NCBI GenBank assembly: GCA_046290385.1
Contig: JBKAGM010000001.1
Coordinates: forward strand, 1,026-65,025
DNA length: 64,000 bases
Reading direction: 5' to 3'
Source: Gammaproteobacteria bacterium
GTDB taxonomy: Bacteria; Pseudomonadota; Gammaproteobacteria; JAGOUN01
In this document: positions 15,044-20,855 of the stretch, piece by piece
How the letters are laid out: each line of letters opens with the position of its first letter
Numbering within the stretch: the stretch's first letter is position 1
Position numbers and translations under genes: made by a program
The notes under the pieces: model-generated
Databases searched by the model: none
Told to the model about the DNA's origin: nothing
What the model saw: only the letters and a program-made list of their open reading frames with translations

Positions 15044-16043
15044 GATCGGGTTTGCGCCGACGTCACAAGGTTTGCTGAGTGTCATAAAACCTTGGTTAGA
15101 CGATCCGGAAGTCTCAGAAATTATGCTTAACCGCCCCAAAGAGATTGTAGTCGAGAAAAAGGGGAAAATGCAGTTTTTTGAAGTGCCAGCACTTAATGAG
15201 CGCTTGATTGCCAACTTATTTCAATTGATCGCAAATGAAAACCAGCAGAACTTCAATGCTAAACAACCGTTACTCTCTGGTAGTTTATTGGATGGTTCAC
15301 GGATACAGTTGATTCTTCCACCCACAGCGAAACACGCATCTTTTGCAATTCGTAGACAGGTAGTGCGTCACTTTAGTCTACAAGATTATGATAAGCAGAA
15401 AATCTACCGCAAGGTTATGCCGGTGAGTATTCACGAAGATAAACAGGAATATCTGCCTGAGCATGAAAAGCAGTTAATTAGTTTGTATTCGCAAAACTGT
15501 TGGGGCGAATTTATTCGAGGCGCGATTGCTGCGAAAAAAAATATTGTTATTTCTGGTGGCACCTCAAGTGGGAAAACAACGTTTCTTAATGCTTGTCTTC
15601 GTGAGATTTCAGAAGATGAACGAATTATTGTTCTGGAAGATACGCGGGAAATTACCATTCCTCATCCTAACCAGGTAAATTTGTTAGCCTCAAAGGGTGA
15701 GCAGGGGATGGCAAAAATCTCCATGCAGGATTTGGTTCAGTGTGCCTTACGGTTGCGTCCTGATCGGATCATTATGGGCGAAATCAGAGGGAAAGAAATC
15801 ATGGATTTTGTGAGTGCTTGTGCTACAGGGCATGAGGGCTCTTTCACAACAATACATGCTAATAATCCGCGCATTGCCTTTATGCGTATGACACAGATGT
15901 ATAAACAAAATAATGTACCATCAATGAGCGACGAAGATATTATGCGAGAACTTAAATCTGTGATCGACATTATTATTCAGCTTCACAAAACGCCAGAAGG
16001 TCGCTTGGCGCAGAGCATTTATTATAACAATGCTATCGTATGA
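15036..16043 (+). CDS. virB11: VirB11 T4SS ATPase
   Basis: Walker A GGTSSGKTT; RPDRIIMGEIRG motif; the ATG overlaps the virB10 stop (aatgactag). Confidence 0.9.
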   Translation: MTRIGFAPTSQGLLSVIKPWLDDPEVSEIMLNRPKEIVVEKKGKMQFFEVPALNERLIANLFQLIANENQQNFNAKQPLLSGSLLDGSRIQLILPPTAKHASFAIRRQVVRHFSLQDYDKQKIYRKVMPVSIHEDKQEYLPEHEKQLISLYSQNCWGEFIRGAIAAKKNIVISGGTSSGKTTFLNACLREISEDERIIVLEDTREITIPHPNQVNLLASKGEQGMAKISMQDLVQCALRLRPDRIIMGEIRGKEIMDFVSACATGHEGSFTTIHANNPRIAFMRMTQMYKQNNVPSMSDEDIMRELKSVIDIIIQLHKTPEGRLAQSIYYNNAIV

Positions 16044-16776
16044 TTTTTTGATATGAAAGCGAGTGTGCCACGAGTTGATTTAATTCATTAAAATCTTTAA
16101 TTACGGCATCAGCTTTGATCATTTTAGCCGAAGCAGGTGCATCGTCATGTTGCATATGAATAGTGATACAAGACAAGGCATTCTTGGCCCCTTGAATGTC
16201 GTCCTCTAAGCTGTCACCAACCATCCAGATTTTCTCAATAGGAGTGTCAAATTTTTTGAGTAAGCGTTCAAACATTTTATGATGTGGTTTTTCAATGCCA
16301 ACTTCTTCTGAAGTTACGATATAGTCAAAGTAATCGTCTAATTTAAAATGGATAAGCTTTTTAAACTGAATTTGTGTGGTTAAATTTGTTACTAGCCCGC
16401 AGGGGATGTTATTTTTTTTGATTGTTTTCATACATTCGTGAACGCCATCAACGAGAGTTGTTTTGCTTAGGAATGTTTGCCAATAAGTTTGTTCGCAGTC
16501 GAGAGCAAGTGATGGTTGAGACTTCATTCCAAGACTTTCTAGCATTATTTGGAAATACAATAAGCGGTTGTGAGAACTCGCCGTATTTTTTAAATTATTC
16601 TTAATGATTTTTTTTGCCTGTTCATAGTGATGTTGAAATGCTTCTTTCCTTAAATCAAGTGAGGTGAACAGTTTTTCTTTTATAGCTTGTAGTGCATGTT
16701 GATGGCTAGTTTCATAATGATAAAAGGTATTGTCAAGATCAAATAGAATGAGATCTGGAGTTGGAAATGTTTTCAT
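16033..16776 (-). CDS. HAD-superfamily hydrolase (YjjG/5'-nucleotidase-like)
   Basis: N-terminal LILFDLDNT (DxD nucleophile motif); C-terminal GDS.EDD motif. Confidence 0.75.
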   Translation of the reverse strand: MKTFPTPDLILFDLDNTFYHYETSHQHALQAIKEKLFTSLDLRKEAFQHHYEQAKKIIKNNLKNTASSHNRLLYFQIMLESLGMKSQPSLALDCEQTYWQTFLSKTTLVDGVHECMKTIKKNNIPCGLVTNLTTQIQFKKLIHFKLDDYFDYIVTSEEVGIEKPHHKMFERLLKKFDTPIEKIWMVGDSLEDDIQGAKNALSCITIHMQHDDAPASAKMIKADAVIKDFNELNQLVAHSLSYQKIIR

Positions 16777-19773: not shown

Positions 19774-19820
19774 ATCTTGTGTCCACCTTCTGTTATGTGC
19801 GAGTGTTCATCAGGGCCGTA

Positions 19821-20855
19821 TTAGGACTGAATACTTGCTCTGTATTTTTCTGCGTCCCAATTGATGAGCGCATTCATTTCATCTTCAGTTAAATATCGGA
19901 TTTTCTCATGACCGTGCAGCTTGGATAAGAGCATCGCCTGGCACCACAACATTTCTTCAAGAGATTGTGAGGCTTGCTGATTTAATACAACACCTTTCTG
20001 CTCGATCACCACATAATCAGGAGGTTTATTATATATTTTTGTGTAACCATCAACAACCTGAGAAAACGATTCGCCTTTTTTCACCACGCAAGGAAACTTG
20101 CCAAGAAAGACGACATGATCGGGATACACTGCCCCTTTTTGAATGAATTTAAAGCAGGTTGGATCTGTTGCCAGCTGATGGATGATAGAATGATTTGGCA
20201 TTTTTCTTTCAAATTGCTCAGTTTTAGGTAGATTCGTCAATTGAGTGGTATCTGATAGGGCACGTGAGGGTTGCTCGAGTAATGTTTCGAGTTGATTTAA
20301 TTTTTCCCAAGCCTGCTGGATGCTGCCTGCTCCTATCACAACACCATGATTGGCTAAAAATAAAATATCTGCATCACATTCGTCTAAAGTGGCTTTGATT
20401 GACTTTGTCAAAGGTAAGCCTGGTTTGACGTAGGGAATCCAGCGCCATTTTTCAGAGAGGCTTTCAAGGCGTTTATTGAGCAATTCCTCACCATTCTCTT
20501 GTACTAGCCAAAAGAGTGCATTGACTGAATGTACATGCGCCACACAGGTATGTGGCATTAATAGGTGCATTGCCGTTTCTATGGATGGGGGCATATTACT
20601 TTCACATAACAGATATTGCTTAATATCTGGAACAGAGTCTGTCGCATCTGATTGGTATGCTGAAATAGATACGGGAAGAAAAATCGGTTTTTCTAGGGCG
20701 TGGGCTAGCCATTGCCCCGAGGCCTTTACCCAGCAAATATCACCTTGTTTAATAGATATATTTCCACCGGCGCCTTGCACTAGGGAACGCGTTTGTCCAA
20801 TCTTAGCCGATAGTGTATTAAGTTCATTTGGGATAGTCAGTGCTTCGGTATTCAT
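19821..20855 (-). CDS. class II aldolase/adducin-family protein with an extra C-terminal domain
   Basis: GAGGNIS, the HxH pair (HVHS) and LANHG motifs typical of the FucA/AraD fold. Confidence 0.5.
   Translation of the reverse strand: MNTEALTIPNELNTLSAKIGQTRSLVQGAGGNISIKQGDICWVKASGQWLAHALEKPIFLPVSISAYQSDATDSVPDIKQYLLCESNMPPSIETAMHLLMPHTCVAHVHSVNALFWLVQENGEELLNKRLESLSEKWRWIPYVKPGLPLTKSIKATLDECDADILFLANHGVVIGAGSIQQAWEKLNQLETLLEQPSRALSDTTQLTNLPKTEQFERKMPNHSIIHQLATDPTCFKFIQKGAVYPDHVVFLGKFPCVVKKGESFSQVVDGYTKIYNKPPDYVVIEQKGVVLNQQASQSLEEMLWCQAMLLSKLHGHEKIRYLTEDEMNALINWDAEKYRASIQS

Follow-up and report, generated by a model that had tools for sequence, protein, structure and literature searches.

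What do four genes that join a phosphoribulokinase-type kinase to a polytopic membrane domain make, and is their product really passed on to the cell envelope? The question is raised by a window (the whole stretch analysed, 64,000 nucleotides) on contig JBKAGM010000001.1 from a metagenome-assembled genome (MAG) of a gammaproteobacterium. On its minus strand, next to the genes of a type IV secretion system (T4SS), lie genes for a class II aldolase-like protein, a nucleotidyltransferase, a fusion of a membrane domain with a P-loop kinase, and a phosphatase of the HAD family. An initial annotation, made from the sequence, had read them as a pathway for making a small nucleotide-activated head-group and for its transfer across or at the membrane. 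Comparison with related loci leads us to consider, with a probability of roughly 60%, that the operon is a reduced derivative of a widespread gene cassette, of which only the cytoplasmic half survives here, and that its position beside the T4SS is incidental.

The four genes form a real, co-translated operon. The junctions, read from the sequence, are those of four tightly packed, translationally coupled minus-strand genes ending inside virB11, as had been described, and the open reading frames (ORFs) are all present at the expected coordinates (Table 1). The stop codon TAA of the nucleotidyltransferase gene (18796-18798) overlaps the TTG start codon of the fusion gene (18803-18801) within TTGATTAA, the stop of the fusion gene and the start of the HAD gene have one base in common, and the HAD stop codon TAG (16035-16033) lies within the last codons of virB11 (14958-16043, plus strand, with its TGA at 16041-16043). 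The plus-strand genes upstream encode VirB4 to VirB11 of the T4SS. The NCBI annotation of the same MAG gives the fusion protein the same length and the same TTG start, under the name 'hypothetical protein ACE365_00110', and an alternative Logan gene call starts it at an ATG at 18749, which has no Shine-Dalgarno sequence. Dozens of genomes, drawn from several phyla, carry these four genes together in the same setting, so that they are more than chance ORFs. Pfam agrees with all four domain assignments of the initial annotation. Scans for promoters and terminators gave nothing above chance, tRNA and Rfam scans of the 64-kb window gave no matches, and no near-identical DNA was found in plasmids. 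The NCBI record names the nucleotidyltransferase a 'glycosyltransferase family 2 protein', a name that its Pfam and NCBIfam matches do not support.

The membrane-kinase fusion is a genuine, uncharacterised protein family of about 690 aa, whose two halves are always fused. A search of 5.8 billion proteins yielded at least 120 full-length relatives, 30-37% identical, and the phosphoribulokinase (PRK) domain is present in all 120 listed homologs. The halves are fused in all of these and in 83/83 loci whose surroundings were compared; orthologues in which they are split, for instance a uridine kinase beside a permease, were looked for and none was seen. The source names of the relatives are only 'phosphoribulokinase/uridine kinase' or 'uridine kinase', and searches of the literature and of family databases turned up neither a curated family nor a paper that describes the fusion or the cassette. 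When one genome per species was scanned, 339 species had a homolog, including members of Lysobacter, Pseudoroseomonas, Azospirillum, Skermanella, Pseudomonas and Polynucleobacter, as well as Erwinia mallotivora, Yersinia proxima, Acidobacteria, a Geobacter MAG and a Coxiellaceae MAG. The genome of the window is not itself among the GTDB species representatives, whose best match to the window fusion is only 38% identical. The RdgC protein of the window has no relative above 62% identity other than the record of its MAG ('Gammaproteobacteria bacterium'). Judged by these identities, the host belongs to a deep-branching uncultured lineage.

The kinase half matches the Pfam family PRK (PF00485) over aa 385-559 with an E-value of 2.7e-33 (115.9 bits against a threshold of 22) and carries the P-loop GIAGGSGTGKDT. 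When the family profile was compared with known kinases, it matched cyanobacterial PRK at 2e-57 (198 bits) and uridine kinase at 3e-25 (92 bits), and the uridine-kinase reading was rejected on this difference. The profile alignment to the structure 6hzk has the motifs DDYH..DR, T.L.PRAN, Y.H.TG, K..RD..RGHS and PQ..AD in common. The published catalytic dyad of PRK is Asp57/His105 of CrPRK; GDDYHLWDR and RRYNHHTGRF are conserved, and the Asp/His dyad is kept in the window protein. The kinase half has the full PRK fold, including the C-terminal domain. We therefore conclude from profile and fold that the kinase is specifically PRK-like and not uridine-kinase-like. The cutoff of the NCBIfam model PRK07429 (236 bits) is not reached by the window protein (161.9 bits) or by its Azospirillum homolog (178.8 bits).

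For the membrane half (residues 1 to about 370), the initial annotation had named the GT-C, PMT and LicB permease families for comparison. The structure predicted by AlphaFold2 superposes on GT-C glycosyltransferases, with superposition values of 24.9 for GPI mannosyltransferase I, 23.5 for ALG3, 23.4 for ALG6, 18.6 for PimE and 16.0 for ArnT. Searched alone, the window fusion matched no GT-C family of Pfam at E<=0.1; among 36 of its relatives, 12 gave a GT87 match and 14 an ALG3 match. The predicted fold indicates that the membrane domain is of the GT-C glycosyltransferase type and not a permease, and the permease/LicB reading was rejected.

The gene neighbourhoods of 83 loci, with at most 8 kb of flank per locus and searched by tblastn with the window, Azospirillum and Roseomonas proteins, show in what company the fusion is normally found. 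As ORF clustering of these neighbourhoods was noisy, owing to spurious ORFs in high-GC loci, the major clusters alone were used. The usual order is aldolase, nucleotidyltransferase, GtrA (where present), GT2, a 195-aa protein, fusion and HAD, with the aldolase sometimes placed after the HAD gene. The HAD gene lies directly downstream of the fusion in 81 of the 83 loci, and the flanks hold a protein of about 195 aa resembling glycerophosphodiester phosphodiesterases (GDPD-like) in 74/83, a nucleotidyltransferase of about 530 aa in 65/83, a GT2 protein likewise in 65/83, the aldolase-like protein in 61/83 and GtrA in 35/83. The canonical nucleotidyltransferase (525-556 aa) is a tandem of two paralogous domains. 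The GtrA and GT2 genes overlap and resemble a split Dol-P-Man-synthase. The 195-aa protein, which NCBI names a PI-PLC/GDPD family protein, had no sequence match in Pfam, NCBIfam or PDB; it is highly conserved, with a mean column identity of 75%, and abundant, with no fewer than 6,924 clusters, and the top 17 PDB matches of its predicted structure (mean confidence score, pLDDT, 93.3) are glycerophosphodiester phosphodiesterases. Since the canonical partners are GT2 and GtrA, the chemistry of the family is probably a polyprenyl-phosphate-linked glycosyl transfer, and this speaks against the transfer of a phospho-alcohol of the LicC/LicD type that had been suggested. By its parts, the full cassette would be a self-contained periplasmic glycosylation module.

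The cassette varies between lineages. Lysobacter-type loci carry an extra stand-alone GT87 GT-C gene after the HAD gene; a second GT-C as a universal member was rejected, since it is confined to these loci and the 586-aa protein that trails the Escherichia coli cassette has no Pfam match. Roseomonas-type loci (L003, L025, L033, L041, L045, L057 and L058) gave no match to the GT2 and GtrA proteins of the Azospirillum type; they have genes for GT4, a GMC-oxidoreductase and an aldo-keto reductase upstream, and downstream conserved proteins of 374 aa (with a weak GT2-like match) and 438 aa. In E. coli, where the cassette was considered as a candidate for the O95 xylulose pathway, it occurs in only 2 of 5,426 complete genomes, both times on plasmids of about 33 kb; in NZ_CP145712.1 (4986-17325; locus L086) the full 8-gene cassette lies between two IS26 copies, one of which is frameshifted. 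This IS26-flanked plasmid copy indicates that the cassette is a self-contained, mobile module. The fusion on this plasmid bears the name 'uridine kinase', and the cassette adjoins a pseudogene of an AIDA-repeat autotransporter; giant DUF4347/HemolysinCabind proteins come after it in Azospirillum (L001), and surface adhesins might be considered as acceptors. A complete 2.8-Mb gammaproteobacterial MAG chromosome (OZ257153.1; L036) has the fusion and the HAD gene, with the aldolase gene about 1.8 kb downstream; no nucleotidyltransferase, GT2 or GDPD gene was found in its flanks, and its GT-C domain is not degenerate. This arrangement suggests that the cassette can be split across a genome.

Compared with the canonical cassette, the window copy is reduced in three respects. 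First, tblastn found no homolog of GT2, GtrA or the GDPD-like protein anywhere in the 64-kb window, and the three-component set of Gtr/Arn-like systems, GT2 and GtrA alongside a GT-C, is not present there. Second, the nucleotidyltransferase consists of domain 1 followed by the tail YDYWQSFFDGWNEHPYTI, which matches the end of domain 2 (FEYWQSCFHKWxxHPYRLE); because this tail is retained, domain 2 appears to have been removed by an in-frame deletion. Third, the membrane domain is degenerate. Scored at the positions that 85% or more of the family members conserve, the window membrane domain departed at 41 of 75 (55%), the HAD protein at 19 of 83 (23%), nucleotidyltransferase domain 1 at 17 of 113 (15%), the kinase domain at 12 of 96 (12.5%) and the aldolase at 7 of 62 (11%), the last mostly by conservative changes. 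Family members depart at a median of 3 positions in the membrane domain, and the next worst has 24 departures. Its identity to relatives is 24%, against an average of 37% for pairs of equal kinase divergence, and the ratio of membrane to kinase identity is 0.54, where none of 1,484 other pairs with the same kinase divergence falls below 0.61.

About 20 aa of the first loop of the membrane domain are deleted, taking the family motif PF...P.DPW; FPYG has become HDQG; and M, S and Q stand in place of the near-invariant residues D130, K164 and E221. In PimE, the first periplasmic loop carries the catalytic Asp (D58), and K195 is the basic residue that binds the donor phosphate. The combination of a conserved first periplasmic loop bearing a catalytic acid with a basic donor-phosphate residue appears to be absent from the window protein. 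Catalytic motifs are kept in the cytoplasmic enzymes: the P-loop and PRK dyad, HAD motifs I-IV, the Glu- and His-containing motifs of the aldolase, and the GxGxR/K signature of the nucleotidyltransferase. The membrane domain of the window protein therefore most likely serves, as far as its sequence tells, solely as an anchor for the kinase.

The initial annotation took the four genes for a complete make-and-transfer pathway, in which the membrane domain might decorate lipopolysaccharide (LPS), lipid or a surface component of the T4SS. The cassette as a family does appear to do such a job, so the idea holds at that level, and in the window itself the ORF of the polytopic membrane domain is intact and its predicted fold is GT-C-like; the missing partners might be encoded beyond the 64 kb. 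The part of the claim that concerns this locus fares worse: the partner genes and nucleotidyltransferase domain 2 are gone, and the membrane-transfer half that is left has eroded far more than the soluble domains (11-23%). T4SS genes adjoin the cassette in none of the 82 other loci (0/82), and a functional link to the T4SS was rejected on this ground. A complete pathway in this organism is thus unlikely, and would need partner genes elsewhere in the genome together with a divergent GT-C that is still active.

Several points nevertheless weigh against the reading of the operon as a reduced cassette with a non-catalytic anchor. Our view covers 64 kb of one MAG, so that genes for GT2, GtrA and the GDPD-like enzyme could lie elsewhere in its genome, and the chromosome OZ257153.1 likewise has fusion and HAD genes without adjacent GT2 or GDPD genes. 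The predicted fold of the membrane half was driven by the family alignment. The candidate Asp of the first loop is not invariant in the family, and inactivity is suggested by the bulk loss of conserved positions. The domain is still part of a full-length ORF with at least eight hydrophobic helices, and could have gained a new function instead of losing one. Finally, the substrates proposed below are taken from the nearest neighbours of each enzyme, and the scores against the PRK, ribulose-1,5-bisphosphate (RuBP) phosphatase and ribulose-1-phosphate (Ru1P) aldolase models all lie below the NCBIfam cutoffs.

The erosion could go further than this, and the operon might be a non-functional remnant that has been decaying since its partner genes were lost. 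Partner loss, the internal domain deletion and the degenerate GT-C all suggest erosion, and a lone deep-branching MAG offers no close relative with which selection could be tested. Yet four intact ORFs with coupled start/stop junctions and a consensus Shine-Dalgarno sequence are present; the deletion in the nucleotidyltransferase is in frame and keeps the C-terminal motif; and kinase, HAD, aldolase and nucleotidyltransferase domain 1 preserve their catalytic motifs and 77-89% of their conserved positions. We regard a mere remnant as very unlikely, and the reduced but functional cytoplasmic module as the better account of the operon.

If the cytoplasmic enzymes are functional, their family relationships may tell what they make. 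The HAD protein matches Pfam HAD_2 at 8e-27 (94.9 bits against a threshold of 23.8) and has motifs I-IV (DxD, T/S, K, DD) as FDLDNT, LVTN, EKPH and GDSLEDD. Its top NCBIfam model is the RuBP 5-phosphatase NF053830, with 185.5 bits (equivalog cutoff 330) and a lead of 67 bits over the next family (118 bits); the Lysobacter homolog ranks the models in the same way, with 178 bits, and over the two proteins the lead is 67-68 bits. The aldolase matches Aldolase_II at 2.7e-19 (70.2 bits against 22.2) over aa 22-194, which are followed by a C-terminal extension of about 150 aa. Among NCBIfam models it comes nearest to the N-terminal halves of bifunctional rhamnulose-1-phosphate aldolase/short-chain dehydrogenase (SDR) enzymes, and against the Ru1P aldolase model NF053831 it scores 30.5 bits, where the cutoff is 300. 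It carries the motifs SIETAMH, which we take to correspond to the catalytic Glu of E. coli FucA, and AHVHS and ANHG, which presumably correspond to the Zn-binding His residues of that enzyme. The nucleotidyltransferase matches NTP_transf_3 at 3e-11 (44.2 against 27 bits) and NTP_transferase at 7e-7 (29.4 against 21.2 bits), has the GxGxR...K signature as MAGFGSRF...PKPL, and reaches no equivalog cutoff in NCBIfam. Membership in the exact PRK, RuBP-phosphatase or Ru1P-aldolase equivalog families is not claimed, since all three scores are below the curated cutoffs.

These relationships suggest a pathway. The PRK domain would phosphorylate C1 of ribulose-5-phosphate, or of a very similar ketose phosphate, to give RuBP, from which the HAD enzyme would strip the 5-phosphate to leave the ketose-1-phosphate Ru1P; this step is suggested because RuBP 5-phosphatase is the best model for the HAD protein both in the window and in Lysobacter. 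The aldolase-family enzyme, the nucleotidyltransferase domains and the GDPD-like enzyme may then convert Ru1P into a nucleotide-activated pentose or pentulose. CDP-6-D-fructose is a precedent for a nucleotidyltransferase acting on a ketose phosphate. In the full cassette, going by the usual roles of their families, GT2 and GtrA would put the sugar on polyprenyl phosphate, and the GT-C domain or domains would pass it to a periplasmic acceptor. The window operon would make a soluble, probably nucleotide-linked metabolite derived from Ru1P, with no envelope decoration.

The same first steps could instead serve a catabolic shunt, as in the haloarchaeal non-carboxylating pentose bisphosphate pathway, running from ribulose-5-phosphate through RuBP and Ru1P to dihydroxyacetone phosphate and glycolaldehyde, with the nucleotidyltransferase as an accessory or regulatory protein. 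The nearest characterised relatives of the window enzymes, PRK, RuBP 5-phosphatase and, weakly, Ru1P aldolase, would fit such a route, and in haloarchaea a phosphatase that acts strictly on RuBP produces Ru1P and shares its operon with a class II aldolase (Sato et al. 2022, PMC9700705). Against it, the aldolase is nearer to the N-terminal domains of the rhamnulose-1-phosphate aldolase type (58 bits) than to Ru1P aldolase (30 bits), and the nucleotidyltransferase is retained with its motifs intact. About 80 other genomes embed these genes in a biosynthetic context, with GT2, GtrA, GT-C and nucleotidyltransferase. A bacterium with a pentose phosphate pathway would presumably also gain nothing by splitting ribulose-5-phosphate at the cost of ATP. 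The shunt seems quite improbable to us, and a biosynthetic role of the Ru1P-forming module is preferred.

A more specific biosynthetic proposal, speculative and rather improbable, is that the cassette makes a lipid-linked donor of a pent-2-ulofuranose (ribulo- or xylulo-furanose) by a route not known before. The window organism would then have kept the first half only, tethered to the membrane and leading to a soluble nucleotide-pentulose whose new role lies outside glycans. Ru1P can form a furanose ring, and ribulose-5-phosphate and RuBP cannot. Removal of the 5-phosphate by the HAD enzyme would therefore let Ru1P close into the furanose; one nucleotidyltransferase domain might then activate the 1-phosphate, the enzyme of GDPD fold might shift the phosphate to the anomeric C2 by way of a cyclic phosphate, and the second nucleotidyltransferase domain could make the true donor, a nucleoside diphosphate (NDP) sugar, which GT2/GtrA and GT-C would hand to a periplasmic glycan. 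Pentulofuranose sugars are rare but known in bacterial glycans.

Whatever the exact sugar, the fusion of PRK with GT-C and the HAD protein resembling RuBP phosphatase point to a RuBP chemistry outside carbon fixation that builds a cell-surface sugar. The cassette is common: it is represented in 339 species, among them soil, plant-associated and enteric genera, and in metagenomic protein clusters that number in the thousands; its elucidation could reveal a new activated sugar and envelope modification, and might explain how pentulofuranoses enter glycans. The window copy offers a natural dissection of it: GT2, GtrA, the GDPD-like enzyme, nucleotidyltransferase domain 2 and the GT-C active site appear to have been lost together, and kinase, phosphatase, aldolase and nucleotidyltransferase domain 1 would be a separable cytoplasmic module.

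Table 1. Features of the four-gene operon (positions in the window)
Feature	Position	Strand	Remarks
Class II aldolase/adducin-family protein	19821-20855	-	344 aa; gene 1 of the operon; NCBI MFN3233807.1
Sugar-phosphate nucleotidyltransferase	18796-19773	-	325 aa; NCBI MFN3233806.1
Shine-Dalgarno sequence AAGGAG	18810-18815	-	6 nt 5' of the fusion TTG; read from the sequence
Membrane-domain::kinase fusion, whole	16776-18803	-	675 aa; TTG start
Fusion, N-terminal polytopic membrane domain	17688-18803	-	aa 1 to ~372; predicted GT-C fold, degenerate
Fusion, C-terminal phosphoribulokinase-type kinase domain	16776-17687	-	aa ~373-675; stop codon included
HAD-IA phosphatase	16033-16776	-	247 aa; coupled to the fusion via TGATG
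Convergent overlap of HAD stop and virB11 end	16033-16043	.	11 bp

Other parts of the window were also surveyed. Ten co-directional, mostly overlapping plus-strand genes (30779-42938) look like an operon for the biosynthesis and export of a small molecule; they include genes for a GH3-family acyl-acid amido synthetase, an alpha/beta hydrolase, an enolase-superfamily (MR_MLE) protein, a 576-aa thiamine pyrophosphate (TPP) enzyme, MatE, a protein resembling 1-deoxy-D-xylulose-5-phosphate (DXP) synthase/transketolase, and a major facilitator superfamily (MFS) transporter. Two large adjoining plus-strand ORFs of 502 and 716 aa (43989-47660) have no Pfam match. The GC content is very low at 27000-29000 (0.27-0.29 against about 0.37 elsewhere), where a LuxR-type (GerE) regulator is encoded at 27677-28480. 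Mobile DNA lies near the region at 52365-57988, comprising a Tn3-family transposase (1057 aa), a YhcG/DUF1016 PDDEXK nuclease and a phage-type integrase, and this stretch is followed by an AcrB/membrane fusion protein (MFP) efflux pair at 59098-63483.

Among known systems, those for pentofuranoses use phosphoribosyl pyrophosphate (PRPP), a UbiA-like synthase and a MATE flippase (Kelly et al. 2024, PMC11127046), and in this the cassette is unlike them. PIG-U and GAB1, subunits of the GPI transamidase, have a GT-C fold and are not glycosyltransferases, which is a precedent for a non-catalytic GT-C fold; they are eukaryotic and carry no kinase, so that their relation to the fusion is one of fold alone. 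The cyanobacterial, plant and archaeal PRKs differ from the cassette kinase, which sits behind a membrane domain of about 370 aa, has no RuBisCO or Calvin-Benson-Bassham context, and is always paired with a HAD enzyme that would undo the 5-phosphate. The haloarchaeal pathway resembles the cassette in having, in one operon, a HAD protein of the RuBP 5-phosphatase model and a class II aldolase-family protein, and the conversion of RuBP to Ru1P is likely shared. In the cassette, however, RuBP would come from the PRK domain and not from a ribose-1,5-bisphosphate (R15P) isomerase, the aldolase belongs to a different subgroup, and the context is glycan biosynthesis, not nucleoside catabolism.

In its logic the cassette is like the NDP-heptose pathway, in which a kinase makes a bisphosphate, the HAD phosphatase GmhB trims it, and a nucleotidyltransferase activates the product. 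The cassette kinase has the PRK fold, whereas that pathway has ribokinase-like or GHMP kinases. The carbon that PRK phosphorylates, C1 of a ketose, is moreover not the anomeric one; an extra rearrangement is therefore needed, and the GDPD-like enzyme together with nucleotidyltransferase domain 2 may supply it. The nearest architecture is that of the three-component periplasmic glycosylation systems, namely GtrA/GtrB/GtrC, ArnC/ArnEF/ArnT and the pentofuranose systems: the canonical cassette likewise has a gene resembling GT2 polyprenyl-phosphate glycosyltransferases, a small membrane protein of the GtrA family, and one or two GT-C proteins. It differs from these systems in that its GT-C is fused to a PRK-type kinase and in bringing a five-enzyme set for sugar activation (PRK, HAD, aldolase-like protein, tandem nucleotidyltransferase and GDPD-like protein), and the window copy differs further in being without GT2 and GtrA and in having a degenerate GT-C. 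The new elements relative to known polyprenyl-phosphate/GT-C glycosylation are thus the PRK-based sugar-activation module and the naturally truncated form of it found in this window.

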